DNA from: Bacillota bacterium
Lineage (GTDB): Bacteria > Bacillota > Proteinivoracia > UBA4975
NCBI GenBank assembly: GCA_050949165.1
Contig: JBMNFF010000001.1
Span: 1,059,185 to 1,123,184, forward strand
Direction of reading: 5' to 3'
DNA: 64,000 nucleotides
Positions 4,801 through 56,793 of this stretch are shown here, in pieces. The notes below the pieces were generated by a model. The model did no database searches and was not told the DNA's origin. It worked only from the letters and a program-made list of their open reading frames with translations. The first letter of the stretch is position 1; each line of letters begins with the position of its first letter. The translations under genes were made by a program, and so were the position numbers.

Positions 4801-4850
4801 GGGGACGGGACTTTTCGTTTCACCGACCTGAAACGAAAAGCCCCGTCCCC
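4801..4850 (-). terminator. GC-rich hairpin (about 21-bp arms, 6-nt loop) between transketolase stop and tdh; probable terminator; GGGGACGG-type palindrome
   Basis: ggggacgggacttttcgtttca / tgaaacgaaaagccccgtcccc inverted repeat 8 nt after the tkt stop, followed by T-rich tract on the minus strand. Confidence 0.6.
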
Positions 4851-4857
4851 GTTGTTT

Positions 4858-5787
4858 CTACTTCTTCAGCTTAAGCCCGGCCTCGATGATCTCCTTGGCC
4901 GTCAGGCCATACTTCTCCAGGAGCTCCCCGGGTTTACCGGATTCTCCGAAGGTATCCCGGACGCCGATGCGCACCAGGGGCGTGGGATGTTCCTCGCCCA
5001 GGACTTCGGCGATGGCGCCGCCCAGACCACCGATGATGCTGTGTTCCTCGGCGGTGACCACCGCCCCGCAGCGCCGGGCATACTTGACAACCGTCTCGGC
5101 ATCCAGGGGCTTGATGGTGTGGACATTGACCACGGCGGCGCTGATTCCCCGATCCGCCAGGTCCGCCGCCGCCTCCAGAGCCTGGTGCACCATGTAGCCG
5201 CAGGCAAAGATGACCAGGTCGTCGCCATCCCGCAGCACCTGCGCTCTGCCCGGCTGGAGCTGGTAATCTTCTCCGTTGACGGTGGGCACCGCTGCCCTGC
5301 CTAAACGCAAGTAGACCGGGCCTTGGTGCTCTGCCGCCCAGCGGGTCATGGCTGCGGCCTCGGGGGCGTCGGCGGGCACCAGCACCGTCAGATTGGGCAA
5401 CGCCCGCATCAGGGCGATGTCCTCGTTCATCTGGTGGGTGGCTCCGTCCTCCCCCACGGTGAGCCCGGCGTGGGTGGCGGCAATCTTGACATTGAGATTG
5501 GGATAGGCTATGGAAGTGCGAATCTGATCATAGCAGCGGCCGGCGGCAAAGATGGCGAAGGTGCTGGCAAAGGGGACTTTGCCCGCGGCTGCCAGGCCGG
5601 CGGCGGCGCCCATCATATCCGCCTCGGCAATGCCGATATTAAAAAAGCGGTGGGGAAACTCTTTGGCAAAGAGGGCAGTCTTGGTAGACCCTGAGAGATC
5701 GGCGTCCAGGACGACGATGCGTTCATCCTCGGCCCCCAGCTGGGCCAGAGCCTTGCCGTAGGCCTCCCTGGTAGCTATCTTGGTCAT
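4858..5787 (-). CDS. transketolase, C-terminal subunit
   Basis: MTKIATREAYG start with GGAGGTGG RBS; transketolase C-terminal/pyrimidine-binding domain motifs; longer ORF-track N-terminus rejected. Confidence 0.9.
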   Translation of the reverse strand: MTKIATREAYGKALAQLGAEDERIVVLDADLSGSTKTALFAKEFPHRFFNIGIAEADMMGAAAGLAAAGKVPFASTFAIFAAGRCYDQIRTSIAYPNLNVKIAATHAGLTVGEDGATHQMNEDIALMRALPNLTVLVPADAPEAAAMTRWAAEHQGPVYLRLGRAAVPTVNGEDYQLQPGRAQVLRDGDDLVIFACGYMVHQALEAAADLADRGISAAVVNVHTIKPLDAETVVKYARRCGAVVTAEEHSIIGGLGGAIAEVLGEEHPTPLVRIGVRDTFGESGKPGELLEKYGLTAKEIIEAGLKLKK

Positions 5788-5788
5788 C

Positions 5789-6622
5789 CTACTCCACCTC
5801 CAATTCTCTAAGGGCCTGTTCGGCCTGTTCCCGGCTGGGTGCGCTGCCGTGCCAGCCCGCCTGATTCTCCATAAAGGACACGCCCTTGCCCTTAATTGTC
5901 CGGGCAATAATTACCGAGGGCTTGCCGGCGGCGGCTTTGGCTGCATCCACTGCAGCGAAGATCTGAGCGAAGTCATGGCCGTCGATTTCCTGCACATGCC
6001 AGCCGAAGGCTTCAAACTTGTCCTTGATGGGCGCCACCTCCATGACGGAGCTGACGGCGCCGTCGATCTGCAAGTTGTTATAGTCGACAAAGGCGATGAC
6101 ATTGTCCAGTTTATAATGGGCCGTGGTCATGGCTGCCTCCCAGACCTGGCCTTCCTGGAGCTCGCCGTCCCCCAAGAGCACGTAGATCCGGCGCTCATCC
6201 TGTCCATCCAGCCTGGCGGCCAGAGCCATGCCGTTGGCCGCGGAAAGCCCTTGTCCCAGGGAGCCGGTGGTCATATCCACGCCAGGGGTGAGCTTGCGGT
6301 CGGGATGCCCTTGGAGCCTGCTGTCAATTTTGCGAAAGGTGAGGAGCTCCTCCTTGGCAAAAAAGCCCCTTTCCGCCAAAGCGGAGTAGTACACCGGCGT
6401 TGCGTGGCCTTTGCTGAGGACGAAAATATCCCGCTCCTGCCAGCGGGGCCGGGTGGGATCCACCTTCATGATTTTGAAGTACAGGGCGGCGAGAATTTCC
6501 ACCGCCGATAGCGACCCGCCGGGATGACCCGACGCCGCTTCGGTTACCATGGAGACGATGTGACGGCGCATGCGCTGGGCAACAGCCTTCAGATTTGCAT
6601 ATCCTTCCACTCTCTTCTTCAC
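5789..6622 (-). CDS. transketolase, N-terminal subunit
   Basis: TPP-binding N-terminal half (GHPGGSLS, GDGELQEG); stop 1 nt before the C-terminal subunit start. Confidence 0.9.
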   Translation of the reverse strand: MKKRVEGYANLKAVAQRMRRHIVSMVTEAASGHPGGSLSAVEILAALYFKIMKVDPTRPRWQERDIFVLSKGHATPVYYSALAERGFFAKEELLTFRKIDSRLQGHPDRKLTPGVDMTTGSLGQGLSAANGMALAARLDGQDERRIYVLLGDGELQEGQVWEAAMTTAHYKLDNVIAFVDYNNLQIDGAVSSVMEVAPIKDKFEAFGWHVQEIDGHDFAQIFAAVDAAKAAAGKPSVIIARTIKGKGVSFMENQAGWHGSAPSREQAEQALRELEVE

Positions 6623-8222: not shown

Positions 8223-9336
8223 CTACTGCCCCTCCCCGTAGCCTGCTTGCCAGCGCAGCCAGGCGTCAATAAACACATCCACATCTCCGTCCAGGACGGC
8301 GTTGGCATTGCCCACCTCCACATTGGTCCGGTGGTCTTTGACCAGGCTGTAAGGATGAAACACATAGGAGCGAATTTGGCTGCCCCACCCGATTTCCCGC
8401 TGTTCGCCTCGAATCCTGGCCAATTCTGCCTCCTGCTCCTGGCGCTGGCGGTCGGCCAGCTTGGCCTGGAGAATCTTCATGGCAGCCAGCCGGTTGGCGT
8501 GCTGGGAGCGTTCATTCTGGCAGGAGACAACTATCCCCGTGGGCAGGTGGGTGATCCGCACCGCCGAGTCGGTGGTGTTGACATGCTGCCCCCCGGCGCC
8601 GCTGGACCGGAAGGTATCAATGCGCAGGTCGTCGGGATTGATTTCGATTTCCGAATCCTCACTGACCTCGGGAATGACATCCAGGGAGGCAAAGGAAGTG
8701 TGGCGCCGCCCCGAAGAGTCAAAGGGAGAAATCCGCACCAGGCGGTGGACTCCCTTCTCGGCCTTGAGATGCCCGAAGGCATACTCGCCCTTGATCAGCA
8801 GAGTCACGCTCTTGATTCCCGCCTCTTCATCGGGCAGGTAGTCCAGGATTTCCACCCCGAACTTATGCTTCTCCGCCCAGCGGGTGTACATGCGCATCAG
8901 CATCTCCGTCCAGTCCTGGGACTCCAGGCCCCCGGCCCCGGAATGCAGGGAGATGATGGCGTTGTTGCGGTCATACTTGCCGCCCAGGAGTTGGGTCAGC
9001 TCCAATTGGCTGAGCTCTGCCCGCAGCGCTTCCAAGCCCTGACCGATCTCGGCCGCCAGTTCCGCCTCGTCCTCGGCCAGGGCCAGCTCGGTAAGCTCCG
9101 CCAATTCCTGCCAATCCCCCTGGAGCTTGGTCCAGGCATCGGTAACCCGGCGCAGGGAATTGACCTGGCTGATGACGGCTTGGGCCTGCTGTTGATCATC
9201 CCAAAAGTCGGCCCCGGACATTTTGGCTTCCAGCTTCTCTACTTCCCTGAGCTTGGCGGGGAGGTCAAAGGGAGACCCCCATTTCCTCGATTCTCTTGCC
9301 AAGCTGCTGAAGTTCAGACCTGTATTCGCTTAGCAA
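8223..9336 (-). CDS. prfB: peptide chain release factor 2 (requires programmed +1 frameshift)
   Basis: RF2 core incl. SGAGGQHVN; frame-0 leader [23 protein letters not shown] ends at in-frame TGA within CTT TGA C (9264-9270, minus strand); TTG start at 9336 with GAGG RBS. Confidence 0.9.
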
Positions 9337-9361
9337 AAAAACACCTCGCTTTCCTGAGCAT

Positions 9362-9444
9362 CGCGACAACGGGGACGCTTCTCCCTGTCGCGGTTGTCAT
9401 TCATCGCCGCCGACGCGACAGGGAGAAGCGTCCCCGCTGTCGCG
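9362..9444. repeat. nested palindromic element: two 31-bp arms (CGCGACA..GGGGACGC..TGTCGCG) that are near-perfect reverse complements, 21-bp spacer
   Basis: arms 9362-9392 and 9414-9444 differ at one position from perfect inverted repeat; lies in secA-prfB intergenic region. Confidence 0.75.
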
Positions 9445-9445
9445 C

Positions 9446-15349: not shown

Positions 15350-15874
15350 TCAAACCTGCGGCTCGATCAGGCCGTAGTTGCCGTCCTTGCGCCGGTAGAC
15401 GACATTGGCCTGGTTGGACTCGGCATTGGTAAACACGAAGAAGTCGTGTCCCAGCAGGTTCATCTGCAGCACTGCCTCGTCGGGAAGCATGGGCTTGATG
15501 GCAAAGCGCTTGGTCTTGACAATCCTCGGTTCGTCTTCATCCCAGATTCTGCCGTCTTCACCGGCAGCCAAGCCGGTTTGCCTAGCTTTGCGGTTGATTC
15601 TGGTCTTGTATTTGCGGATTTGGCGCTCCAGTTTCTCCACCACCAGGTCGATGGAGGCATACATGTCCGCCGATTCCTCTTCTGCCCTGATCAGCATTCC
15701 GCCATTGAGCAAGAGCATCGCCTCTACCACGTGGGATTCCTTGACCACACTGAGGGTGACCTGAGCTTCGGTGTTGGCATCAAAGTACTTGGCTATCTTC
15801 CCTATTTTCTTTTCCACATGAGCCCTGAGCGCGTCTGTTATTTCGATATTCTTACCCCGAGTAGTAATCCGCAT
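15350..15874 (-). CDS. hpf: ribosome hibernation-promoting factor (long form)
   Basis: MRITTRGKNIEITDALR start with AAAGGAG RBS; HPF N-domain plus C-terminal dimerisation domain. Confidence 0.9.
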   Translation of the reverse strand: MRITTRGKNIEITDALRAHVEKKIGKIAKYFDANTEAQVTLSVVKESHVVEAMLLLNGGMLIRAEEESADMYASIDLVVEKLERQIRKYKTRINRKARQTGLAAGEDGRIWDEDEPRIVKTKRFAIKPMLPDEAVLQMNLLGHDFFVFTNAESNQANVVYRRKDGNYGLIEPQV

Positions 15875-15973
15875 ACAACCAACTCCTTTCAGTGCTGTAC
15901 TATATTTATTCCCCAAATCCCCATGAAATCCTGCCAGTAAAAACTAAAATCCCGCCGAAGCGGGATGGTTAGT

Positions 15974-16171: not shown

Positions 16172-16482
16172 TAAAACTTACCTCCAAAAATGATGTAGCT
16201 TGTAAAGCTCGATTCATCCTACCATAGTAAAAAGGCCAATGTCAATTTTACCGAAAAAACTGTCAATGAAGTCCGACAGCTGACCTGGTCTTTGCCCCCA
16301 CACTCGCCTGCTGGAGGGTTCGCGCTAACTACTGCCTCTCTCGGTTTTCCCGGCAGGACTTACTTCTAAGCCGCACCATGCTCGGCAGTTGGTTTTTTTT
16401 GCTGCCTTACGTGGGTCGTTTCGCCTGCGACTGGCCTCGACTTTCAACCACAGACCTGTCAGACATCATTAGAGTAACGTAT

Positions 16483-16734
16483 TCTGACCAAAATTGCAAA
16501 AGCAATTTTGGTCAGAATTGGGGACGGTCCTCAGCCCATTACCCCTTCCCACGGCAGGAGGCCCGTCCCATAAATTGCAAAAGCAATTTTGGTCAGAATT
16601 GGGGACGGTCCTCAGCCCATTACCCCTTCCCACGGCAGGAGGCCCGTCCCATAAATTGCAAAAGCAATTTTGGTCAGAATTAGGGACGGTCCTCAGCCCA
16701 TTACCCCTTCCCGCGGCAGGAGGCCCGCTCCCAT
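16483..16734. repeat. three tandem copies of an 81-bp unit, each containing a palindromic spacer and a GGGGACGG..CCGTCCC inverted repeat
   Basis: units at 16491-16571, 16572-16652, 16653-16733 (third copy with 3-4 substitutions); 34-bp palindrome TCTGACCAAAATTGC-AAAA-GCAATTTTGGTCAGA at 16483-16516. Confidence 0.9.
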
Positions 16735-16739
16735 CTCCA

Positions 16740-17390
16740 TCAGGCCGCCAGGGTCAGCACCAACACCCTCCTGGCCCCGGCTCTGATGAGGGCGCCGGCG
16801 CAGGCGTCGGCGGTAGCGCCGGTGGTAAAGACATCGTCCACCAGCCAGATATTTCCCGTCAGGTCTTGTCGGCGGGCATGGATATAATCCTCCAGACCCT
16901 GAAGGCGCTGGTGCCCGCTCAGAAATACCTGGGGCTGCCTGCCCGGCCGCCGGGCCAGAGCCCGGACCAGCGGTGCGCCGACATTCCTGGCCAGTTCCCG
17001 GGCCGTTAAGCCCACGGCGTCAAAATAGCGCCAGTGCTTCCCCGCCGCCGGCGCCGGCGTCACGGCCTGGGGCTTGGGAAAGCCGGCTTCCCCGGCCAGC
17101 CTGGCCAACTCCCGGGCCAGCTCCATCGTTACCCTCCGGTCCCGGGCAAACTTGGCGGCCTGGACCACCTTGCGCCAGGGCCCCAGATAATGGGCCAGGG
17201 AGAGCACCCGGCTATATCTGTGATCCAGGGGGGCGCAGGTGCGCCCCCCGCAGATTCGCCCACAGCGAATACAACCCCTGAGCCCGGTAAACTCCACCTG
17301 GGCCAGACATTGGGAGCAGAGGCCGAACTTCTCCCGGACATTCCGGCGACAATTCAAGCAGAGTGGCGGAAACAGGGCGTCCATCGCCAT
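16740..17390 (-). CDS. comFC: ComF-family protein (phosphoribosyltransferase domain, ComFC-like)
   Basis: N-terminal Cys-rich zinc finger (CLNC...CSQC...CIRCGR) and C-terminal PRTase motif VDDVFTTGAT. Confidence 0.7.
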   Translation of the reverse strand: MAMDALFPPLCLNCRRNVREKFGLCSQCLAQVEFTGLRGCIRCGRICGGRTCAPLDHRYSRVLSLAHYLGPWRKVVQAAKFARDRRVTMELARELARLAGEAGFPKPQAVTPAPAAGKHWRYFDAVGLTARELARNVGAPLVRALARRPGRQPQVFLSGHQRLQGLEDYIHARRQDLTGNIWLVDDVFTTGATADACAGALIRAGARRVLVLTLAA

Positions 17391-17457
17391 CACCCTTCCA
17401 CCTGATCTTTCGGAGGTAATTCTCCACCCGCCGCCGTCAATCCTGCCCCTGGCCAAA

Positions 17458-22144: not shown

Positions 22145-22266
22145 AAAAAACCCCTTCAGGTTTGAAAGGGTTCGTCACCCCTCATCTGCGGGAATTGGCA
22201 CCGTGCCCCGTGGCCGGTTGCCGGGTTTCATCGGGCCCGCCCCTCCACCTCTCTCGATAAGAGCTC
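22145..22266 (-). ncRNA. SAM-I (S-box) riboswitch with intrinsic terminator, leader of metK
   Basis: minus-strand sequence CTCTTATCGAGAGAGGTGGAGGGGCGGGCCCGATGAAACCCGGCAACC...GGTGCCAATTCC...GCAGA matches S-box consensus; followed by hairpin and TTTTTT. Confidence 0.85.
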
Positions 22267-25315: not shown

Positions 25316-26241
25316 TCCTCAGCATCTGCCTCAACACTTCTCTGGACACCCGCTACACCGCGCCCGGCTTTAAAAAGGGCGGCATCCACAGCGTGGCCCC
25401 GCCCAGCGTCACCGCCGGGGGCAAGGGCCTCAACCTGGCCCGGGTGGCGGCCCAGTTGGGCGCCTCCGTCACCGCCCTGGGCCTGGTGGGGGAAAGAGAC
25501 CTGGACTTCTTTACCCAAGCCATGGAGGCCGAAGGGGTGAGCCCCCGTTTCACCCCCCTCCCCTCCCCCAGCCGGCGCTGCCTCAACATCATCGACCCCG
25601 ATACCAAGAGCGTCACCGAAATCCTGGAGCAGGGCTACCCCGCCCGGCAGGAACACTTTCAGAGCCTCCTCAGTCAGGTGGAAGCAATGGCCCCCCAGGC
25701 AGCGGTTATCGCTGCCAGCGGCAGCGTTCCCCCGGGGTTGGACCCCGACGTCTATGCCCAACTGGGCGAGCTGGCCCGGCGCCTTGGCAAGCCCTTTGTC
25801 CTGGACGCCCGGGGCCGGCACCTTCAAGAAGGGCTCAAGGGCCGCCCCTTTGCCGTCAAGCCCAACCGAAGGGAACTGGAAACTTGGGCAGGGGCGCCCC
25901 TGGAGACGGATGCGGACATCGCCGCCGCCCTCTTGCGGCTGGCCCAAGCCGGCGTGGCCCTGGCCACCGTCAGCCTGGGGGCGGAGGGCGCCATGGCCGC
26001 CGCCCAGGGCAAGCTCTGGCTGGCCCGCCCGCCCCGGGTAGAGGTCGTAAACCCCGTGGGGGCAGGGGATGCCTTCGCCGCCGGCCTCTGCGTAGCAATA
26101 ACCCGGAATCTCAGCTTGCCCGAAACCCTGGCCCTGGCCGTAGCCAGCGGCGCCGCCAGCGCCATGCATCCCGAGACCGGCCATGTGGACATAATGCGCC
26201 TGGAGCAGCTGCTGCCCCAGGTAGAGATCACCGAAATCTAA
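25312..26241 (+). CDS. PfkB-family sugar-phosphate kinase (1-phosphofructokinase/tagatose-6-phosphate kinase-like)
   Basis: GGKGLN and C-terminal GAGDAF motifs of ribokinase/PfkB family; start overlaps upstream stop. Confidence 0.8.
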   Translation: MILSICLNTSLDTRYTAPGFKKGGIHSVAPPSVTAGGKGLNLARVAAQLGASVTALGLVGERDLDFFTQAMEAEGVSPRFTPLPSPSRRCLNIIDPDTKSVTEILEQGYPARQEHFQSLLSQVEAMAPQAAVIAASGSVPPGLDPDVYAQLGELARRLGKPFVLDARGRHLQEGLKGRPFAVKPNRRELETWAGAPLETDADIAAALLRLAQAGVALATVSLGAEGAMAAAQGKLWLARPPRVEVVNPVGAGDAFAAGLCVAITRNLSLPETLALAVASGAASAMHPETGHVDIMRLEQLLPQVEITEI

Positions 26242-26243
26242 AG

Positions 26244-26315
26244 CGCGACAGCGGGGACGCTACAGATTGTCGCACCCCCGGCGGCCGCGACAGGCCGAAG
26301 CGTCCCAGATGTCGC
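26244..26315. repeat. paired-hairpin element related to 9362-9444 (CGCGACA..GGGGACGC..TGTCGC and CGCGACA..GCGTCCC..TGTCGC)
   Basis: two 30-bp halves at 26244-26273 and 26286-26315 in the PfkB-GH36 intergenic gap. Confidence 0.6.
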
Positions 26316-26333
26316 AGACGGGAGGTTTAGAGA

Positions 26334-28322
26334 ATGCAATTTGGCAAAGCCCGCCTCAGCTTCCGCGACGCAGGGAGGGCAGAGACAGTGACCTTCTCTG
26401 ACCTGAGCTGCAGCCACCCCCGGCTGCAGGTCTCCCCTCACCTGCAAAAACTCCGCCACGGCGCCGTCCTCACCTTGACCCTGACCGCTTCCGAGCCGGT
26501 GGAACTGGAAGAATTCATCCTGGAGGCCCAGCTTCCCAAGGGGAATATGCTCAGCAACGGTTACCAATCCTGGTCCCGAACCAAGCTCTACCGCCCCGAC
26601 CAATATATGGCTCCCCTCTTCGCCCTGGCCCGGCCCCTGCTCAGTCCTTACGGGGATTACTCCCTGATTCGGCGCAGCGGCCGCCGCGGCCATTTCTTTT
26701 CCTGGTCCTGGACAGGCTTTGAGCAGGAGGGCAACTGGTTCTTGCTGGGTTCCGACGCCGAAGACTGGGGATACACCCTCTTTGAGGTCGATGGACGCCA
26801 GGAAAAACTCTATATCCGCCGGGACTGCCAGGGCGAAATAACCTCGTCCTACCCCCTCCTCCAGCTCTACTACGGCTGGGGCGGTGAAGGTGAGGTGTGG
26901 GATGAATATGCCTCCCTGCTGACCCGCCGACGTCCCAACGCCCGGCGCTGCACCGGCTGGACCAGCTGGTACAACTACTATACAAAGATCGACGAGGAGA
27001 TCATCCTGGACAACCTCCGGGCCCTTTCGACCTCGGGGCACCCCTTCCAGATCTTCCAAATCGACGACGGCTGGCAGGAGGCCATCGGCGACTGGCTGGA
27101 TATCAACGCAAAATTCCCCTCGGGCCTGGCCAGCCTCGCCCGGACAATTCGCCAACGGGGTTTCCGCCCCGGCCTGTGGCTTTCCCCCTTCATTTGCGAT
27201 AAAAAATCCCGCCTGTGGCGGGAGAATTACGACTGGGTCCTCAAGGACGAGAAGGGTCGTCCTGTCAAGGCCGGCTGGAACCCCGGCTGGAATGGCTGGT
27301 TCTACGCCCTGGACTTCTATGCCCCGGGCTTTCAGACCTGGCTCAAGGAGGTCTTTGCCACCATCCTGGACCAATGGGGGTTCCAGATGGTCAAGCTGGA
27401 CTTCCTCTATGCCGTGGCCCTGCGCCCCCACCACGGCCGCTGCCGGGGGCGGATCATGGCCGAGGCCATGGAGTTCCTGCACCAAATCTGTGGAGACAAT
27501 TTCATCCTGGGCTGCGGCGTACCCCTGGCCCAATCAGCGGGCCGGGTGGACTTCTGTCGCATCGGCGCCGACGTGGCCCCCTACTGGGAAGACCGATTCC
27601 TGCGGACGATAGGCTACCGGGAGCGGGTCTCCACCCGCAACTCCCTGGCCAGCACCCTGCACCGGCATATGCTGGACAGGCGGTTCTTCCGCAACGATCC
27701 CGATGTCTTCCTCCTCCGGGACGGCGTCCCCAAGGTCAATGAGAACAAGCTCAGCCTCGCCGAGCGCCATACTTTATTCTTCCTCAACAACCTCCTGGGC
27801 GGCCTGGTCTTCCTCTCGGACCATGTGGGGGAGTACACCCCGGAGCAGCAGGCCCAGCTGGCCGAGATGTTCCCCAGCCTGGAAGCAGAAATAACCCGCT
27901 TCCATTACCAGGGGGAACTGTTTGTAATTGAGTTCCAGGTGGAGGAGCGGGAATACGTCGCCCTGGTAAACTTAAGCCCCAAACCCGCTTACCTCGACCT
28001 ACCCCCGGGCCAGTGGTTCCACCCGGAGCTTAAAGTCTGCACCGGCCACCTGGATTTGCAGCCCCACCAGACCCTCTGCCTGGCCAAGGTCAAGCCCCAG
28101 GCCCAGCCCTATGTGCTGGGGAGCAGCGGCCACCTGTACCCCGGCGCCCAGGTAGAATCCTTTACCCGGGAAGGGGATGGCTGGACCCTGACCCTGAAAT
28201 CCTACTCTTCCCCCCACACCCGGGTCTGGATAGCCCTGCCTGAAGGGATGGAAGAACTGGTGGTCAACGGCACCCGCCCAGAAATCATCCACTGGGGACG
28301 GTTCCCAGTGGCGCAAATCTAA
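26334..28322 (+). CDS. glycoside hydrolase, GH36-like (clan GH-D, alpha-galactosidase fold)
   Basis: QIDDGWQ, GLWLSPF and MVKLDF motifs typical of GH36/GH27 catalytic domain; family assignment by eye. Confidence 0.6.
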   Translation: MQFGKARLSFRDAGRAETVTFSDLSCSHPRLQVSPHLQKLRHGAVLTLTLTASEPVELEEFILEAQLPKGNMLSNGYQSWSRTKLYRPDQYMAPLFALARPLLSPYGDYSLIRRSGRRGHFFSWSWTGFEQEGNWFLLGSDAEDWGYTLFEVDGRQEKLYIRRDCQGEITSSYPLLQLYYGWGGEGEVWDEYASLLTRRRPNARRCTGWTSWYNYYTKIDEEIILDNLRALSTSGHPFQIFQIDDGWQEAIGDWLDINAKFPSGLASLARTIRQRGFRPGLWLSPFICDKKSRLWRENYDWVLKDEKGRPVKAGWNPGWNGWFYALDFYAPGFQTWLKEVFATILDQWGFQMVKLDFLYAVALRPHHGRCRGRIMAEAMEFLHQICGDNFILGCGVPLAQSAGRVDFCRIGADVAPYWEDRFLRTIGYRERVSTRNSLASTLHRHMLDRRFFRNDPDVFLLRDGVPKVNENKLSLAERHTLFFLNNLLGGLVFLSDHVGEYTPEQQAQLAEMFPSLEAEITRFHYQGELFVIEFQVEEREYVALVNLSPKPAYLDLPPGQWFHPELKVCTGHLDLQPHQTLCLAKVKPQAQPYVLGSSGHLYPGAQVESFTREGDGWTLTLKSYSSPHTRVWIALPEGMEELVVNGTRPEIIHWGRFPVAQI

Positions 28323-28464
28323 ACCTGCGACAACAGGGATGTTTCAGATCGTCTCAAAATCCATCTCCGCACGCTCCCGGAACCAGGGAGGTAATCGGCT
28401 CTCGAGACGGCGCCCATAACACAACGGAAACAAATTTGAGACAGGTGCACGCGTCCCCGCTGTA

Positions 28465-29118
28465 TCATTGCGAAGGGAAAAAGTGCTGCATTGCCCTATT
28501 TTTATTTTCTTGTGACAGCTTAGTTATTTCATTGGATCGGTGGATATTATTTAATCTATACCTAACCCAAGCCGGAAATATCTCTTTCATGTCCTGGGCA
28601 TACAAAGAGCCGTCCCTGGGAAACTGTTTCCCGATTACCGTAAATCCGCCGTTGGTTAAATCCACTGTAACCAAACAGGGCATGGATGAACCGCTTTCCT
28701 TCACGACTCTTCCCTGTTGGGGAAAATAAATTTCCTCCAGCACCCAGAGGTAAACCTCCACCTTTTCATCTGAAATAAAAGAGTATCCATAGATTCTAAA
28801 GGATGCAAAGCTTTCTGCATTATCCGATTTGGCATGCCCCGCTGTCAAATATTCCTGAATAACTTTGATATTATCCTCAGCAAAGGACATGTTTCTTTGC
28901 TTGCCAAATAAAGTAATCATTTCACTAACGTTTCTACCCTTTTTCGCAACCTTATAGCCTAGGCCGATGTAAATAATTGCTTCATCAGTATCGGAAGTCC
29001 GAATGCTGAATATCGGATTTTTATTAGCCAGAAATCTGTAATAGTCCACTCCGAATAGTATGGTCCACGCAACCAAAATAACCAGACCAAAGAACAACAG
29101 TTTGCGTTTTAGTAACAA
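28465..29118 (-). CDS. hypothetical membrane-anchored protein encoded in an AT-rich insert
   Basis: 217-aa ORF, TTG start with AAGGGG RBS; N-terminal TM helix; local GC clearly below flanks. Confidence 0.5.
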   Translation of the reverse strand: MLLKRKLLFFGLVILVAWTILFGVDYYRFLANKNPIFSIRTSDTDEAIIYIGLGYKVAKKGRNVSEMITLFGKQRNMSFAEDNIKVIQEYLTAGHAKSDNAESFASFRIYGYSFISDEKVEVYLWVLEEIYFPQQGRVVKESGSSMPCLVTVDLTNGGFTVIGKQFPRDGSLYAQDMKEIFPAWVRYRLNNIHRSNEITKLSQENKNRAMQHFFPSQ

Positions 29119-32046: not shown

Positions 32047-32236
32047 CACCCAATAAAAAAGGGTTACCGGAAATGACAGGTAACCCTTTCTTAAATTATG
32101 CAAGGCCTTTTAGCCATCCTGACGAAGCCGGGCGGCAAGAGCCGCCCCTGCAACGCCGCCACCCGCAGGTCCAGGGGGAGCAGCCGAACCATGTAATCGC
32201 CCCTCCGACACCGGGTGTGAAGCAAAAGAACCGTCC

Positions 32237-33574
32237 CTATGCTTCCAATGTTACGGTAAAGACCGCCCCCTGGTCATTATGCACCTGGATTTCTCCCCCA
32301 TGCTGCTGGACCACGGCCTGGGCGATGGAGAGGCCGATGCCATGCTTGCCGCCCAGGCCCTTGTAAAAGCGGTCAAAGATATGGGGAAGGTCCTGGTCGC
32401 TGATGCCAGGACCATCGTCGGCCACCCGGGCCACCGCCCGGCCTTGGACAAGGCGGCAGGACAGGGTGATGCGGCTGTCGGCATAGCGGATGGCATTGGC
32501 AATGAGATTGGAAAAGGCCCGGGACAGGCCCTCCTCGTCGCCCACCACCTCCACCGGCTCCGGGTCGAACTCAAAGGTGAGGGATATTCCCCCTTTCTCA
32601 GCCAAAGGGCGCAGGGTCTCGGCGCTGTTGGAGATGACCTCCCGCAGGTCCAACCGCTCCTTCTTTGCCGTGCCCAGGCTGCTGTCCATCCGGGAAAGGT
32701 AGAGCAGACCATCCACCATCTCCCTGAGTCTATCGGCTTCGTCGATGATAACACCGCTGGACTGCTGGCTGTCCAGGATGCCGTGCTGGATGCCCTCGGC
32801 ATTGCTGCGAATGGCCTGGAGGGGGGTGCGCAGTTCGTGGGAGACATTCTGAAAGAAGGTCTTTTGCTCCCGATCATAGCTTTCCAGCTGCTGCGCCGCC
32901 CAGTTCATGCTCTCGGCCAACTCTGCCAGCTCGGCATCCCGGTACTCCGGGCTGCTGGTCCGGAAATCCCCCTGCCCCAGGCGGGTGGCAAAGCGGGTCA
33001 GCTCCCGCACCGGCCGGGCGATGACCCCGGACAGGAAGAAGGCCAGGCCCACCGCCAGCAAGCCCGCCACCGCCATGACCCAGACCAAAGTGGTGTTGAT
33101 ACGGTCGGCAAAGGCAGAGATGGCTGTCATATCGAAGTAAAAGATATAATAGTAATAACTCCCGGGCTGGTTCACCGAGACAAAGTAGTAGTCCCGACCC
33201 GAGGCCCGGAGGTTCATAATCTTGTTACTGTCCAGGTTGACCTTCTCCGCCGCCAGCGCCCTGGCCAGGACGTAGACCTCTTTGAAGTTCTCCAAATAGG
33301 TCAGGCCCAGATCCGGCACCACCAAGTCGTAGTCCCTGGTGACGATGATGAACTGCCCCGACCCCGCCGGGCCCAGGGGCAGGCCGATGGTGCTGCGCCC
33401 GGGCGTTATCCGGAGCACTTCCCCCAGTTGGGCCTGGACGCTGCTCAAGATATAATCCCGAACCAGGTAGTTAAAGGCCACCTGGATCAGGAGAAAGGTC
33501 ACGGCCAGCAGGAGGAGGATGGAGATCAAGATACGGGCGCGGATGCTGATTTTTCCCCGGCTAGCCACGGCCAT
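32237..33574 (-). CDS. two-component sensor histidine kinase
   Basis: two TM helices, HAMP-like linker, H-box SHELRTPL, HATPase domain. Confidence 0.85.
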   Translation of the reverse strand: MAVASRGKISIRARILISILLLLAVTFLLIQVAFNYLVRDYILSSVQAQLGEVLRITPGRSTIGLPLGPAGSGQFIIVTRDYDLVVPDLGLTYLENFKEVYVLARALAAEKVNLDSNKIMNLRASGRDYYFVSVNQPGSYYYYIFYFDMTAISAFADRINTTLVWVMAVAGLLAVGLAFFLSGVIARPVRELTRFATRLGQGDFRTSSPEYRDAELAELAESMNWAAQQLESYDREQKTFFQNVSHELRTPLQAIRSNAEGIQHGILDSQQSSGVIIDEADRLREMVDGLLYLSRMDSSLGTAKKERLDLREVISNSAETLRPLAEKGGISLTFEFDPEPVEVVGDEEGLSRAFSNLIANAIRYADSRITLSCRLVQGRAVARVADDGPGISDQDLPHIFDRFYKGLGGKHGIGLSIAQAVVQQHGGEIQVHNDQGAVFTVTLEA

Positions 33575-34253
33575 CCCGCCTTTTTAAGCGAAAACCGAAA
33601 CCCCACACCGTTTCCACCACAGTGTCGGTATCCTGGATCTTCTTGCGCAGGCGCCGGACGGTGTCGTCGGCGGCCCGGGTCTCCACCGGGCTGTCAAAGC
33701 CCCACACCTTGTTCAGCAGTTCTTCCCGGGATACCGCCCGCTCCTGGTGCTCCACCAGGTAAGCCAGGAGGTTGAATTCATTGGGGGTGAGGTCCAGGGG
33801 TTTGCCCTGGGCGGTGACGGTCTTGGTCCTCTGATCGATGACCAGGTCGGCGAAGGTGAGGACGTCCTGGGCGGACCTCCCGGCCTCGTAGTCGATGCGG
33901 CGGAAGATGGCCTTGACCCTCAGGACCAGGGCCATGGCAGAAAAGGGCTTGGTAAAGTAATCGTCGCTGCCCAGGTTGATGCCCGTGGCATAGTCCAGGT
34001 CGCTGTCCCGGGCAGTGAGCATGATGATGGGAACGGTGCTGATTTTCCGCAGCTCCCGGCAGATCTCGAACCCGCTGCTGCCGGGCATCATGACGTCCAG
34101 AATAACCAGGTCCGCCGGCGCTACCCGGAATGCTTCCAAGAGCGCATCGCCGTCCTCGAAGGCAGTGACCTCATACCCCTCGCTCTCCAGAAAGGCCTTG
34201 ACCACCTCGCGGATATTCTCTTCGTCATCGGCCAGGTAAATTGTCCTCGCCAT
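33561..34253 (-). CDS. OmpR-family response regulator
   Basis: receiver domain (DDEE...D...K) plus winged-helix C-terminal domain; ATG with AGGGGGTG RBS. Confidence 0.85.
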   Translation of the reverse strand: MARTIYLADDEENIREVVKAFLESEGYEVTAFEDGDALLEAFRVAPADLVILDVMMPGSSGFEICRELRKISTVPIIMLTARDSDLDYATGINLGSDDYFTKPFSAMALVLRVKAIFRRIDYEAGRSAQDVLTFADLVIDQRTKTVTAQGKPLDLTPNEFNLLAYLVEHQERAVSREELLNKVWGFDSPVETRAADDTVRRLRKKIQDTDTVVETVWGFGFRLKRRDGRG

Positions 34254-34308
34254 CAGCCGCACCCCCTGCTGAAGTTCTATGACAGTCTACTTCCAGAGTA
34301 TAGCAAAT

Positions 34309-35427
34309 TTACTTCCTCTCTCCCAGGGTGAGCTCCACAGTATGGGTGCCGCCATCCCGGTAGATTTCCACTTCCACGGTATCCCCCACCTTGTGCTCCT
34401 TCAGGATGCCGGTGACATCTTTCAGGGAGCGGACCTTGATTCCGGCCAGGGAGAGGATGATATCATTGGCCTTGATTCCTGCCGCCTCAGCCCCGCTGCC
34501 CTCGACCACTTCATTTACCAGCAGCCCCTGGGGCACATTATTATACAGGGCTGCCATGGGACTGATTTCCGAACAGAAAATTCCCAGAGCGGGACGGCCC
34601 CTGACATAACCGTGCTCAATCAGGTCTTCAACTATGGGCAGGACCAGGTCGATGGGGATGGCGAAGCCGATGCCCTCCACATCGGTGGCGGCGATCTTAA
34701 TGGTGTTGACGCCGATGACCTTGCCCTGGGCGTTGACCAAGGCGCCGCCGCTATTGCCGGGATTGATGGCGGCATCGGTCTGGATCAGACGCTCGGCCAC
34801 ATTTTCCCCCGCCACCTGGCGGTTGATTCCGCTGATGACCCCTGCCGTGACGGATCCTTCCATGCCCAGGGGATTGCCGATGGCCATGGCAAAATCCCCC
34901 ACCCGGACCTCTTCAGAGCTGCCAAACTCCGCCACCGGCAAGTTGTCCAGCTCGATCTTGATTACCGCCAGATCGTTCTGCTCATCGCCGCCCACATAGG
35001 TGGCCTCAGCCGACCGGCCGTCGGCCAGATAGACCTCCAGCTGGGCCTGGTTGTTATTCAGCAATGGTTTGACCACGTGGTAGTTGGTAATAATGTAACC
35101 ATCCCGGGAAGCGATAATCCCCGAGCCCTTGCTGGTCTGTTCCCTGGTTTGAGGCAATCCCAAGGGACTGGAATTGGCAAGTCTGGTAGTGACGGTGATC
35201 CCCACCACCGAGGCCCCGGCTTTCTCGGCGATGTCGGCGGTGCTGAGGCCAGGAGCAGGATAGTCCACGGGGGTCAAGCTGGGTAACTCTTCCCCAACCC
35301 TTTCCAGGCTTTCCATCAACTCCTGGAATCTTGCATCATAGTCTGATTTCACCGCTGCCATTCCCAAACCACCAAAAAGTATCACAGCAATTAAACCCAT
35401 GGTTAAAAATTTATTTGCTCTTGTCAA
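34309..35427 (-). CDS. htrA: HtrA/DegP-family serine protease with PDZ domain
   Basis: N-terminal TM anchor, catalytic triad context (ITNYHVV, NDLAV, GNSGGAL), C-terminal PDZ; TTG start with AAGGGGGATG RBS. Confidence 0.85.
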   Translation of the reverse strand: MTRANKFLTMGLIAVILFGGLGMAAVKSDYDARFQELMESLERVGEELPSLTPVDYPAPGLSTADIAEKAGASVVGITVTTRLANSSPLGLPQTREQTSKGSGIIASRDGYIITNYHVVKPLLNNNQAQLEVYLADGRSAEATYVGGDEQNDLAVIKIELDNLPVAEFGSSEEVRVGDFAMAIGNPLGMEGSVTAGVISGINRQVAGENVAERLIQTDAAINPGNSGGALVNAQGKVIGVNTIKIAATDVEGIGFAIPIDLVLPIVEDLIEHGYVRGRPALGIFCSEISPMAALYNNVPQGLLVNEVVEGSGAEAAGIKANDIILSLAGIKVRSLKDVTGILKEHKVGDTVEVEIYRDGGTHTVELTLGERK

Positions 35428-35546
35428 TCAGCATCCCCCTTTTTTTGATTTCTCCAGTTATAATTTACCTGGGGGGCGACTTGGAAATCACCGCAGCGGG
35501 CAAGCAAAATTGCCGCAAACCTGCGGCAGAAGCATGGGGAAGCATG

Positions 35547-35609
35547 GGGACGGTTCTTTTGCTTCCCCAACAACGCCTTGGAAGGCAAAGGAAGCAAAAG
35601 AACCGTCCC
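35547..35609. repeat. perfect 20-bp inverted repeat GGGACGGTTCTTTTGCTTCC / GGAAGCAAAAGAACCGTCCC (GGGGACGG family) directly upstream of the ATP-grasp RBS
   Basis: arms 35547-35566 and 35590-35609 with 23-nt loop; preceded by tandem 10-bp duplication agcatgggga x2 (35531-35550). Confidence 0.8.
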
Positions 35610-35625
35610 ATTTGGAGGAGTGAGC

Positions 35626-36804
35626 ATGTACAATAACAAAGCCCTGGTCATCGGGGCCAATTACTATATCGGGCTCAGCGCCATCCGCTGCCTGGGCAGC
35701 CAGGGGGTGCCGGTGGCGGCGGTGGACTATTCCCGGGAAAGAGCCTATGCCTTCAAATCCCGCTGGTGTCGGGAGCAGTTGTTGGCGCCCAACTACCGCC
35801 GGCAACCCCAGGCGTTCATCGACTTCCTCCTGGAGTACGGGAAAAGGCAGAGCTCAAAGCCGGTACTGTTTCCCACCGCCGACGCCTATGCAGAAATCCT
35901 GGACCAAAATTATTACGCCCTCCGGGAATACTTCTTGCTGCCCAACCCCCGCCAGGGCTTCTATACTGAGCTCCTGGACAAGAACCGCCTCCATCGGCTG
36001 GGAATCCATCACGGCATGGCGATGCCCGAATCCCTGTCGGTGCGGGATATAGACCGGGTGGAGCGGGAGATTGGCTACCCCTGCCTGCTGAAACCCGTCA
36101 CCTCTCCGGATTTTGTCCGCATCTTCCGGGTCAAGGTCTTGGTGGCCCAGACAAGAGCCCAGTTGGAAGAGGCCATCGCCCTGGCCCAGAAGCACGGCCT
36201 GGAGACAATCATCCAGCGGATAATTCCCGGCTTCGACGATCACATGCACACTTACGACGCCTATGTCGACGGGAAGGGAAATGTTACCCACTGGACCACC
36301 TGCCAGAAAAAGCGCCAGTATCCCATCAATTTCGGGGCTTCGGTATTTACCCAGCAAAAGCACGTCCCCGAGCTGCACCGGCTGGGTTCAGAATTCTTCC
36401 GGCGCATCGGCTACCGGGGCTTTGGCGAAATCGAGTTCAAGTACGATGCAGACAGGAATAAGTACTATATGATTGAAGTCAATGTCCGCCTCAGCAACCT
36501 CAACGCCCTCCTGCACCGGGCCGGCCTCAACTTCCCCTATATCATGTACCGGGACCTCATCGGCGACTCCCTGGCTCCTGAGGCCATCACCTGGGATACC
36601 GGCCTCCACTTCTGGTCGGCCCTGGAGGATGCCTTCGCCCTCCGGGATTACCTGCGCCAGGGCCAGCTCACTCCCGGGCAGGTTGCCAGGTCCCTGCTCA
36701 GCAAAAAGGTCCCTTCAATCTGGGACTGGCGGGACCCCCTGCCGGGCCTGAGCTACGGCGGCCAGCTACTGGGCAAGGTTGGTAGAAAAATATTTCGCCG
36801 CTGA
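35626..36804 (+). CDS. ATP-grasp domain protein (predicted carboxylate-amine ligase)
   Basis: N-terminal Rossmann-like KALVIGANYY, central ATP-grasp motifs (CLLKP, EIEF), ATG with GGAGGAG RBS; ORF-track N-terminal extension rejected. Confidence 0.7.
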   Translation: MYNNKALVIGANYYIGLSAIRCLGSQGVPVAAVDYSRERAYAFKSRWCREQLLAPNYRRQPQAFIDFLLEYGKRQSSKPVLFPTADAYAEILDQNYYALREYFLLPNPRQGFYTELLDKNRLHRLGIHHGMAMPESLSVRDIDRVEREIGYPCLLKPVTSPDFVRIFRVKVLVAQTRAQLEEAIALAQKHGLETIIQRIIPGFDDHMHTYDAYVDGKGNVTHWTTCQKKRQYPINFGASVFTQQKHVPELHRLGSEFFRRIGYRGFGEIEFKYDADRNKYYMIEVNVRLSNLNALLHRAGLNFPYIMYRDLIGDSLAPEAITWDTGLHFWSALEDAFALRDYLRQGQLTPGQVARSLLSKKVPSIWDWRDPLPGLSYGGQLLGKVGRKIFRR

Positions 36805-36830
36805 AAATCACCCACTGAGAACCGTCCCCC

Positions 36831-37874
36831 GTGGACTTACCACTGGTAAAGAAGTATAATTTCAATCTAGCCCAGAGCGTGTTGAAAGCGGGTGATACGG
36901 TGATAAAACTGGAGGGAATCAACAAGACCTTTCGGGTTGCCAAGCGCCAGTCCGGATTTGGCCGGGCGGTAAAGGCGCTCTTCTCCCGGGAATATGAGAC
37001 AATCCATGCCCTCAGCGATGTCAGCTTCTCCATCAAGGACGGAGAAATGGTGGGGTACATAGGCCCCAACGGCGCCGGCAAGAGCACCACTATCAAGATT
37101 ATGTGCGGCATCCTCACCCCCGACAGCGGCAGATGTGAAATCGACGGGCGCACCCCCTGGCGGAACAGAATCGCCCATGTCCGCAACATCGGAGTGGTCT
37201 TTGGCCAGCGCAGTCAGCTATGGTGGGATGTCCCGGTCTGCGACAGTTTTGATCTCATCAAGGATATCTACAAGGTGGAGACAAGGCAGTATCGGCGCAT
37301 CCTGGATGAGCTGATCAGCCTCCTGGACCTGGCCGAGATTCTCAAGACGCCCACCCGCAACCTCAGCCTCGGCCAACGCATGCGCTGCGAACTGGCCGCC
37401 TCCTTGCTCCACAGCCCCAGAATCCTCTTTTTGGACGAGCCCACCATCGGCCTGGATGCCGTATCCAAGCTGGCGGTGCGTCAATTCATCAGGGAACTCA
37501 ACGCCAGGCAGGGAACCACCGTTATCCTGACCACCCATGACATGCAGGATATCGAGGCCTTGACCGAGCGCATTCTCCTCATCGGCAAGGGGAGAATCCT
37601 CCTGGACGGCAGCTTGGACGAGCTTAAGAAGCGCTGGTCAGGACGCAAAACCATAGTCTTCGAGTATAAAGGCCTGACCCCAGCTACCTGTGAAGGTATG
37701 ACCACGGTGGAGGATCGCCCAGGACGGCTGGTAATCGAGCTGGAGCCCGACCTTTGCCCGGTATCCGGGGCCATCGCCCATATTTCCGCCCAGGTGGATA
37801 TCACCGATATTTCGGTTTCCGGCATCAGCGCCGAAGAGATGGTGGCGGGCCTGTACCAGGAGTACCGCATATGA
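36831..37874 (+). CDS. ABC transporter ATP-binding protein
   Basis: Walker A GPNGAGKST, signature LSLGQRMR, Walker B LFLDEPT; start codon uncertain (GTG at 36831, poor RBS). Confidence 0.85.
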   Translation: MDLPLVKKYNFNLAQSVLKAGDTVIKLEGINKTFRVAKRQSGFGRAVKALFSREYETIHALSDVSFSIKDGEMVGYIGPNGAGKSTTIKIMCGILTPDSGRCEIDGRTPWRNRIAHVRNIGVVFGQRSQLWWDVPVCDSFDLIKDIYKVETRQYRRILDELISLLDLAEILKTPTRNLSLGQRMRCELAASLLHSPRILFLDEPTIGLDAVSKLAVRQFIRELNARQGTTVILTTHDMQDIEALTERILLIGKGRILLDGSLDELKKRWSGRKTIVFEYKGLTPATCEGMTTVEDRPGRLVIELEPDLCPVSGAIAHISAQVDITDISVSGISAEEMVAGLYQEYRI

Positions 37875-56664: not shown

Positions 56665-56766
56665 ATGAAAGAAACCTTCCCCTATCGCCCCACCGGCCTC
56701 TCCACCGGCAAGGGCAAACCCCCAACCCGTCCCCCCTTTCCCATCCAACTGCTTCCACCCCGGTAA
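56665..56766 (+). CDS. small peptide, 33 aa (MKETFPYRPTGLSTGKGKPPTRPPFPIQLLPPR)
   Basis: ATG 7 nt after AAGGAGGTG; paralogous to next ORF; below ORF-track size cutoff. Confidence 0.5.
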   Translation: MKETFPYRPTGLSTGKGKPPTRPPFPIQLLPPR

Positions 56767-56793
56767 ACCAAAGCCATAAAAGGAGGTAAAACC

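Follow-up and report, generated by a model that had tools for sequence, protein, structure and literature searches.

The window studied here is the whole 64-kb stretch (64,000 nucleotides) analysed from the Bacillota assembly GCA_050949165.1 (contig JBMNFF010000001.1, positions 1,059,185 to 1,123,184). It contains genes for a transketolase C-subunit (4858-5907, minus strand, assigned by Pfam), tdh, secA, prfB, pfkB, an alpha-galactosidase, a two-component system and an ATP-grasp protein, and it holds GC-rich palindromes of the form GGGGACGG...CCGTCCCC at several sites. The original prediction placed such palindromes after the transketolase gene (A, 4801-4850), upstream of the ATP-grasp gene (B), inside each unit of an 81-bp tandem array and, as a half-site, at 36819-36830. 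All four are present where they had been placed, and these sites fold far better than shuffled sequence (z -5 to -9). Relaxed scans and a covariance model of the repeat unit brought the family to at least 10 loci in the 64 kb; the additions are doublets D and E, two solo units (28289-28311 and 32219-32246) and two decayed ones (28326-28355 and 28438-28466). The analysis confirmed that the palindromes are genuine copies of one small hairpin repeat. The members are listed below, with covariance-model scores in bits.

4801..4850, minus strand: doublet A, a 22-bp hairpin with variant core GGGGACGGGGCT / GGGGACGGGACT
9349..9445, minus strand: doublet D, arms 9362-9392 and 9414-9444, between the secA stop codon and the prfB ribosome-binding site
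16491..16734, no strand assigned: array C, three 81-bp tandem units between a comFC-like gene and the raiA RNA
26238..26319, plus strand: doublet E, in the gap from pfkB to the alpha-galactosidase gene, its inverted units having core GGGGACGC and GCGACA/TGTCGC stems
28289..28311, plus strand: solo unit CCACTG-GGGACGGTTCC-CAGTGG in the last codons of the alpha-galactosidase gene; 16.7 bits at 28280-28320
28326..28355, plus strand: decayed unit TGCGACAACAGGGATGTTTCAGATCGTCTC
28438..28466, minus strand: decayed unit F, GAGACAGGTGCACGCGTCCCCGCTGTATC; 9.4 bits
32219..32246, minus strand: solo unit GGAAGCAT-AGGGACGGTTCT-TTTGCTTC, overlapping the histidine-kinase stop codon; 35.1 bits at 32212-32252
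35536..35610, plus strand: doublet B, with a perfect 20-bp stem, in the ATP-grasp leader; 38.8 (left unit) and 17.7 (right unit) bits
36811..36835, minus strand: solo unit (the half-site) TCCACG-GGGGACGGTTCT-CAGTGGG; 28.0 bits at 36803-36843

Doublet A lies 7 nt past the stop codon of the transketolase C-subunit gene and about 90 nt ahead of the tdh start, with TTTCTTT directly 3' of the hairpin on the sense (minus) strand. It folds at -47.3 kcal/mol on that strand, where its single mismatch becomes a G.U pair, and at -38.6 kcal/mol on the plus strand. D consists of two inverted units CGCGACA-nn-GGGGACGCTTCTCCC-TGTCGCG and folds at -75.6 kcal/mol (z -9.2; model scores 17.9 and 17.6 bits). In array C each 81-bp unit carries one GGGGACGGTCCTC...GAGGCCCGTCCCA hairpin (16520-16570, 16601-16651 and 16682-16733) together with one 17-bp perfect palindrome. 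A, C and E carry variant cores, and each taken alone is only marginal in the unit covariance model (12.5 and 10.8 bits for the arms of A, 9.4 for C, 10.6 for E). The left unit of B, GGGGAAGCAT-GGGGACGGTTCT-TTTGCTTCCCC, forms a 9-bp hairpin by itself and the right unit is its inverted partner; the doublet ends 16 nt ahead of the ATP-grasp ATG and 4 nt ahead of the GGAGGAG ribosome-binding site. The half-site is placed between the ATP-grasp stop codon and the start of an ABC ATPase gene, antisense to both.

Architecture of the repeat unit

The solo copies indicate that the basic unit is a small hairpin and that the long palindromes are two units in inverted orientation. This unit was shown to span about 25-40 nt, with a variable stem of 6-10 bp and a loop of about 15 nt that holds the core G-GGGACGG-(TT, less often GG, TC or AC)-CT. 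Taken over all arms, the consensus is GGGGACG[G/C]nnCT ... AGnn[C/G]CGTCCCC. The shared block seen by the original prediction is real, but it is more than a terminal heptamer of the palindromes: 11-12 nt in length, it forms a core within the loop of a smaller hairpin, the unit. Doublets consist of two inverted units, 4-25 nt apart, which can also be folded as one hairpin of 20-31 bp; units occur singly as well, and in tandem arrays with a period of 19-21 bp.

The block conserved in the unit loop is GGGACGGTTCT, and the positions that flank the stem are variable. When 114 distinct units from many genomes were aligned on the core, the six pairs flanking it were complementary in 69.9% of cells, as compared with 44.7% after shuffling. 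The covariation score was 0.616 versus 0.214 for shuffled units (reached in 0/500 shuffles), and registers slid along the alignment were all only 33-44% paired. As RNA, the segment GGGGA-CGG-UUCU(C) lengthens the unit stem through G.U pairs. Stem sequence divides the window copies into three subfamilies.

Stem GCGACA/TGTCGC: D, E and the decayed pair 28326-28355 and 28438-28466
Stem GAAGCA/TGCTTC: B and 32219-32246
Stem CCACTG/CAGTGG: 28289-28311 and 36811-36835

The left ends of D and E share the same 19 nt, decayed unit F and D have GCGTCCCCGCTGT in common, and 32219-32246 matches the left unit of B at 27 of 28 nt.

Frequency of the motif in the window

Motif frequency had been proposed as the test of the family, and its outcome depended on the motif that was counted. 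The short heptamer GGGACGG is barely above expectation (24 in the window against 16.5+-4.0; 24 was reached by 4/100 shuffles), and GGGGACGS occurs 16 times against 10.5 expected. The longer core and the pair arrangement are clearly enriched: GGGACGGTTC occurs five times against 0.16+-0.39 expected, a count reached by 0/100 shuffles, and convergent GGGACG..CGTCCC pairs within 100 nt occur six times against 0.72+-0.80 (0/300 shuffles).

These figures bear on the possibility that the sites are independent intrinsic terminators or other hairpins that share GGGGACGG by chance, which we regard as very improbable. The heptamer, enriched only 1.5-fold, and the U-rich tail of A would fit such an origin. 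The excess of the 10-mer and of convergent pairs speaks against it, as do copies with identities of 19-27 nt, the position of some of them in a 5' leader or in coding sequence, and the scarcity of U-tracts. Only A is followed by a U-rich stretch; it is missing at B, D and E and at most of the 131 doublets taken from other genomes. A GC hairpin is found in all copies, but the full combination that defines an intrinsic terminator, GC hairpin plus U-tract, is not a property of the set. The original reading, a dispersed family resembling repetitive extragenic palindromic (REP) sequences and bacterial interspersed mosaic elements (BIME) rather than independent terminators, was supported here, since identity between copies extends beyond the heptamer and the copies occur as singlets, inverted doublets and arrays.

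Gain, inheritance and loss in related genomes

The host species is also represented by the metagenome-assembled genome (MAG) GCA_964472835.1, and the window sequence is found again in JGI metagenome 3300053716. The nearest named relatives of its threonine dehydrogenase are from Natranaerobius and Limnochorda, at 60-65% identity, which points to an uncultured, deep-branching member of the Bacillota. Informative relatives share 68-87% protein identity with the window (L157, 87%; L158, 77%; L161, 75%; L162, 68%).

Doublet E is present in the window and in L157. In the alignment it is missing from L158 and L161, where pfkB abuts the GGGAGG ribosome-binding site, and its insertion gives pfkB a new TAA stop codon. 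D is absent from L284 and L285, in which the secA stop codon is followed by 6-10 nt, GAGGTG and the prfB start, with no hairpin. As these relatives, two outgroup genomes for each doublet, have continuous gene junctions, D and E are clean insertions of about 80-100 bp. Each of these two blocks entered a gap of only a few nucleotides that separates a stop codon from the Shine-Dalgarno sequence following it. Such insertions relative to sister genomes, and the extragenic position of copies beside stop codons, agree with the dispersed family that had been proposed. A is absent from L285 and L286, and an unrelated hairpin occupies its site in L284. Array C has the same three copies in a second metagenome and is absent from L162.

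Solo units have also entered genes. The C-terminus ..TRPEIIHWGRFPVAQI of the alpha-galactosidase is found only in the window and in the 87% homologue, and all other homologues end in ..Q.FP....GI.YIIV; judged from these sequences, the solo unit at 28289-28311 replaced the 3' end of the gene. In L158 a unit of the CCACTG subfamily lies in frame inside the alpha-galactosidase gene, changing ESFTREG-DGW to NQPVGTVLSGW, and a GGCTGG that already stood downstream is the reverse complement of the unit's new 5' stem. In L162 a CCACTG-core-CAGTGG unit is placed instead 3' of the GH1 stop codon. We count these non-orthologous positions of one subfamily as support for mobility.

Inheritance and decay can be followed at the alpha-galactosidase locus. 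The unit after the stop codon of this gene is intact (CGCGACA..GGGACGC..GTCGC) in L157, L158 and L161 and decayed in the window (28326-28355); its core has been kept at the same intergenic place in the three relatives, and the remaining spacer has diverged. Decayed unit F corresponds to the second half of a doublet that stands directly ahead of the MFS gene in L157. Together, the insertions, the shared copies and the decayed copies indicate that copies are born, inherited and lost.

The new units overlie core-like sequences that were already present (internal site, GGGGATGGCT; C-terminal site, AAGACGGCAT; beside E, GGGAGGTT). This observation is what would be expected if gene conversion or biased recombination had spread the motif as a molecular drive, in the manner of the Neisseria and Haemophilus uptake sequences, and so is the nature of the motif, short, asymmetric, over-represented, often in inverted pairs 3' of genes and sometimes in frame. 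We nevertheless consider such a drive improbable. D and E arrived as blocks of about 80-100 bp with common 19-nt ends and not by point mutation, and uptake sequences are lineage-specific, whereas the present core crosses phyla and prophages. Sequence-specific DNA uptake is not known from Bacillota, which also argues against it.

Distribution in other genomes and viruses

One genome per GTDB species, and viral contigs as well, were scanned with the doublet pattern GGGACGGNNCT-N20-50-AGNNCCGTCCC, in which two core positions were left free. At least 120 GTDB loci matched. Among the GTDB matches listed, most are from Lachnospiraceae, other Clostridia and Bacillaceae (Neobacillus, Rossellomorea, Mesobacillus, Falsibacillus). 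Matches listed on long contigs also come from Prevotellaceae/Bacteroidales, Muribaculaceae, Micropruina and Collinsella (both Actinomycetota), Omnitrophota, Elusimicrobiota, Syntrophaceae, Planctomycetota and Acidobacteriota MAGs; the taxon labels of MAG contigs were used as given. Among viral contigs, 21 matched, and one of them, L142, is a prophage end with tail and lysis genes that holds five near-identical doublets within 6 kb, between late genes.

Two scrambled GC-rich control patterns matched 31 and 46 viral loci, against 21 for the real pattern. Raw pattern counts are thus not evidence, and this result would also fit a chance resemblance among hairpins. The composition of the matches differs from that of the controls. 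The free core positions are TT in 70% of arms at the GTDB loci listed and in 54% at the viral loci; at the same positions the controls are flat, the commonest dinucleotide reaching 14-17%, and this again opposes chance. The base ahead of the core is G in 73% of arms. More than one doublet was found at eight loci among the GTDB matches listed and at five viral loci, and at none in the controls. Extra GGACGGTTC cores at the same loci numbered 75 among the GTDB matches listed, against about 6.6, and 24 in the viral set, against about 1.4, the expectations being naive ones that assume equal base frequencies. They belong to solo units whose flanks are complementary, to imperfect doublets and to tandem arrays that repeat every 19-21 bp. 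L044, L047 and L066 carry arrays, and one array set builds a large palindrome; such arrays and array-palindromes show rapid slippage-type evolution.

Copies are also found in Neobacillus, and complete genomes with copies include those of Neobacillus drentensis JC05 and Ca. Formimonas warabiya. In Rossellomorea vietnamensis, eight core-bearing sites follow each other every 0.7-1.9 kb in one 8-kb stretch, in the intergenic spacers between blocks of one or two genes. In Petroclostridium sp. X23 a doublet with core GGGACGGACCT lies inside a 132-bp repeat whose two copies (L081 4725-4856 and L087 3866-3997) are 92% identical, so that in some lineages the hairpin travels inside a larger element resembling a MITE (miniature inverted-repeat transposable element). 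The family is not confined to one lineage: its core and architecture recur in prophages and in Bacillota, Bacteroidota, Actinomycetota and Omnitrophota.

This breadth is relevant to the idea that the sites are operators of a local transcription factor, such as the OmpR-type response regulator encoded at 33561-34262. All five exact GGGACGGTTC 10-mers do fall within 8.5 kb (28.3-36.8 kb) around the two-component system. A local regulon is, even so, hardly credible: the same core recurs in prophages and in unrelated phyla, at loci that are unrelated too, the sites are found at 3' ends or in coding sequence and not in promoters, the variant-core members A, C and D are far off in the window, and L158 has no two-component block yet carries units elsewhere. 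Both chance terminators and a local operator regulon are effectively excluded.

Position and strand of the copies

Among the listed loci of other genomes, doublets lie mostly 3-40 nt 3' of a stop codon. Their gene context there was co-directional in 53 cases, convergent in 20 and divergent in 8, statistics that rest on crude gene calls by longest open reading frame (ORF). Orientation showed no bias: solo units were sense in 6 cases and antisense in 7, and doublets were more stable on the sense strand in 35 cases and on the antisense strand in 29 (p=0.2). The lack of a sense-strand preference argues against a strand-specific RNA function and for a phenomenon at the DNA level.

The main rival to a mobile repeat is a signal useful to the host, in which the core hairpin, as RNA or single-stranded DNA, would be read by a widely conserved factor (a double-strand-specific RNase, for example, or a termination or processing factor) and would have been recruited by selection to cistron ends in bacteria and in their phages. 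We judge this unlikely, although several observations could be accommodated by it. The copies are strongly biased to positions just past stop codons and just ahead of the next ribosome-binding site; the cores at one intergenic place were kept in three related species; up to five copies stand within 6 kb among prophage late genes; the same core is used across phyla; and the RNA form extends the stem by G.U pairs. Set against these are the absence of strand bias in solo units and in doublet stability, the presence of units in coding sequence and antisense to genes, the missing U-tract in most copies together with the lack of any Rfam match, and the decay of copies, while arrays and array-palindromes resemble the dynamics of junk DNA.

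Searches for a mobilising factor and for earlier descriptions

No gene for a REP-associated tyrosine transposase (RAYT) was found in the window by Pfam scans of the submitted ORFs or among the Pfam labels on JGI gene calls. All-against-all clustering of 899 ORFs around copies returned generic families only; the largest cluster covered 12 loci (one member that was checked is a response regulator) and the next covered 8. Paired copies enclose ordinary genes, either metabolic or accessory. A putative transposase that is YhgA/Rpn-like (PF04754; 50404-51555, minus strand) is encoded in the window, beside a gene for a WYL-domain protein (51780-53702). It has an internal 12-nt tandem repeat (50534-50574) that encodes a short EGRA run; no units flank this gene, and no homologue of it was found near other copies. 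None of the sequences analysed contains a parent insertion sequence whose ends match, and no collection was searched for one.

At gathering score, Rfam recognised in the window only raiA and a S-adenosylmethionine (SAM) riboswitch. At a permissive E-value, site B drew only spurious microRNA hairpin models, and 18 further loci gave no Rfam match. In the searchable full-text literature the 11-mer, on either strand, was present in primers only, and descriptive searches returned only the known work on REP, on REPINs (inverted REP doublets) and on CGTC repeats; we could not find the hairpin family described in the literature that was searched. Element sequences compared by BLAST with annotated phages and plasmids gave no useful match.

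A metagenome scan for copies of the D/E type with GCGACANNGGGGACGCN{4,12}GTCGC produced 120 chance matches in GC-rich soil sequence, where the recurrent GCGACATCGGGGACGC encodes Gly-Asp-Ile-Gly-Asp-Ala in one frame. By inspection, the integron attC site was discarded, as the core (GGTTCTY / RAGAACC) has pyrimidines where attC (RYYYAAC ... GTTRRRY) has purines. Group II intron domain V, mimics of the tRNA T-arm or the tmRNA acceptor, the CsrA site, boxA, RfaH ops, parS, the f1 origin and the mycobacterial topoisomerase I site, all compared by inspection only, have few bases in common with it.

Comparison with known systems

The REP/BIME/REPIN sequences mobilised by RAYT (TnpA-REP) in Escherichia coli and Pseudomonas are short, extragenic, imperfect palindromes, rare in divergent promoter regions, which occur as singlets, inverted doublets (REPINs) and clusters, form subfamilies within a genome, insert occasionally in frame and have incidental roles as 3' stabilisers or terminators (PMC3116915, PMC3733652, PMC2817692). 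The family described here is similar in its imperfect palindromes of 20-40 bp with many extragenic copies (at least 10 loci in the window), its inverted doublets A, B, D and E, its arrays in L044, L047 and L066, its subfamilies, its in-frame insertions and its scarcity in divergent regions. It differs in that an 11-12 nt core lies in the unit loop, in place of a GTAG at the 5' foot (the GTAG ahead of D is only the secA stop codon), that the stems vary freely between copies, that one core is used across phyla whereas each RAYT lineage has its own REP, and that no RAYT was found beside any copy. A 2013 survey reported no tagged REP families from Bacillota (PMC3733652).

CGTC REPs have an unpaired CGTC head, a stem of 8-9 bp starting with A/T, a loop of 4-5 nt and a CCA tail; the phyla reported for them are Proteobacteria, Chlorobi, Bacteroidetes, Spirochaetes and Thermotogae, and Firmicutes are not among these (PMC3733652, Di Nocera, De Gregorio and Rocco 2013). 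Our family likewise has CGTC on one core strand (..CCGTCCCC), mostly forms head-to-head dimers, is spread over several phyla and has no identified dedicated transposase, but head, stem, loop and tail are all unmatched. Since its copies carry no GTAG or CGTC foot tag and no linked RAYT or other transposase, we describe the family as one that appears to behave like REP/BIME, and we do not claim its membership in the REP family.

The sites of HUH-type single-strand nucleases are laid out likewise, a variable stem carrying the conserved sequence in its loop. The likeness to the origins and nick sites of rolling-circle Rep proteins and of IS200/IS605 TnpA would be one of layout only, a variable stem presenting a conserved loop-side sequence; no HUH gene is linked to the copies and the core is not known to match any nick site. 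The DNA uptake sequences (DUS) of Neisseria and the uptake signal sequences (USS) of Haemophilus are asymmetric motifs of 10-12 nt, over-represented, present as inverted-pair terminators and tolerated in frame. They spread by uptake bias and point mutation within one lineage, in contrast to the 80-100 bp blocks and cross-phylum core seen here. Bacterial MITEs such as RUP, BOX, Correia and bcr1 are non-coding, dispersed elements with inverted-repeat ends, located beside genes. Our doublets share the inverted-repeat ends (the two units being inverted copies), the dispersal and the proximity to genes; they are much smaller (25-100 bp), and no clear target-site duplication was seen.

Neighbouring features

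Array C occupies the position expected for the promoter of a raiA-motif RNA (16271-16464, minus strand; RF03072, 182 bits), which lies between the comFC-like gene (16740-17456) and a hibernation-factor gene (15350-15916), the usual setting of raiA. The 17-bp perfect palindrome ATTCTGACCAAAATTGC-AAAA-GCAATTTTGGTCAGAAT, present at 16481-16518 and in each 81-bp unit, is unrelated to the GGGACGG core and is not found in L162; its sequence suggests, for the raiA RNA, an operator or a -35 region (TTGCAA). A SAM-I riboswitch (22179-22263, minus strand; RF00162, 71 bits) precedes the S-adenosylmethionine synthetase gene.

The block of histidine kinase, response regulator and HtrA protease genes (32237-35427) is missing in L158, where GH1 is followed directly by ATP-grasp. 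In the window it is bracketed by units of the GAAGCA subfamily, 32219-32246 and the left unit of B, and the repeats may thus mark or mediate gene gain and loss. An ORF of 217 aa with no Pfam match (28465-29118, minus strand) lies between the alpha-galactosidase and MFS genes only in the window species; it is inserted beside the decayed doublet, whose L157 counterpart stands immediately ahead of the MFS gene.

Five independent Logan assemblies from short reads (L010, L011, L013, L014 and L015) all break at one base (GGAAGCATGGGGACGG...), which lies within the tandem GGGGAAGCAT GGGGAAGCAT ahead of B and 88 nt upstream of the ATP-grasp ATG; strain variation may explain this, or a branch that a repeat creates in the assembly graph. 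Next to D, prfB has a classic programmed +1 frameshift site, GGGGGTCTCCCTTTGAC (about 9255-9275, minus strand). Its true start is a TTG at about 9331, downstream of D and separated from it by a spacer on the scale of nucleotides, and the ORF list gives only the part after the frameshift (8223-9302). A small proline-rich ORF, MKETFPYRPTGLSTGKGKPPTRPPFPIQLLPPR (56665-56767, plus strand), has a strong ribosome-binding site and stands just upstream of a further ribosome-binding site and ATG; its GGGGACGG match is probably due to chance.

Origin and significance of the hairpin family

On balance, we think it probable that the copies belong to a non-autonomous mobile palindrome family, similar to REP, REPIN and MITE elements and with an architecture of its own. 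The comparisons with relatives show that new copies arise by copy-and-paste or gene-conversion-like events, in the very short spacers that separate a stop codon from the ribosome-binding site of the following gene and, in some cases, in frame within genes. A trans-acting enzyme or host factor, encoded away from the copies, would recognise the core or cleave at it. Any effect on the host would be incidental, produced by stable stem-loops at the 3' ends of mRNAs or between cistrons, which would give partial termination, protection from 3' exonucleases or processing sites. With its U-rich tail, A could serve as the transketolase terminator; D and E lie between co-directional neighbours, and the copies of the window are probably neutral or mildly regulatory stem-loops.

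Some results weigh against a mobile family. Comparison of filled and empty sites for D and E revealed no clear target-site duplication, at most an AT in L157. No transposase or recurrent gene stands beside the copies, either in the window or at 141 other loci. Close strains, compared at four sites (the two alpha-galactosidase flanks, 32219-32246 and B), are 100% identical except for one base at B in one assembly, and no ongoing transposition was seen among them. A selfish repeat would not usually keep an 11-mer conserved across phyla, and this conservation could instead mean a host function; the gene calls behind the context statistics are, as said, crude.

A broader proposal, which we put forward tentatively and hold to be considerably less probable than the mobile family itself, is that the GGGACGGTTCT-loop hairpin represents an unrecognised pan-bacterial mobile-hairpin system, in which one conserved trans-acting enzyme (HUH-type, another single-strand nuclease or a universal host enzyme) reads the loop core. 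In Bacillota, Bacteroidota, Actinomycetota, Omnitrophota and their phages, units would be copied into spacers close to stop codons and sometimes into coding sequence itself. Stems might be partly templated from the target, as the 5' stem of the L158 unit, the reverse complement of its flank, would suggest.

If the mobile family is real, it would add a REP-like class of repeats to Gram-positive and anaerobic lineages, where such repeats are poorly documented, and this class would differ from known REPs by its loop-borne conserved sequence and its cross-phylum core. Its copies would reshape operons, as where the D hairpin abuts the prfB ribosome-binding site or E stands between the pfkB and alpha-galactosidase genes, alter the C-termini and surface loops of proteins, and mark the edges of gene gain and loss; they may also break short-read assemblies. 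The factor that reads the core would then be a new sequence- and structure-specific nucleic-acid enzyme.

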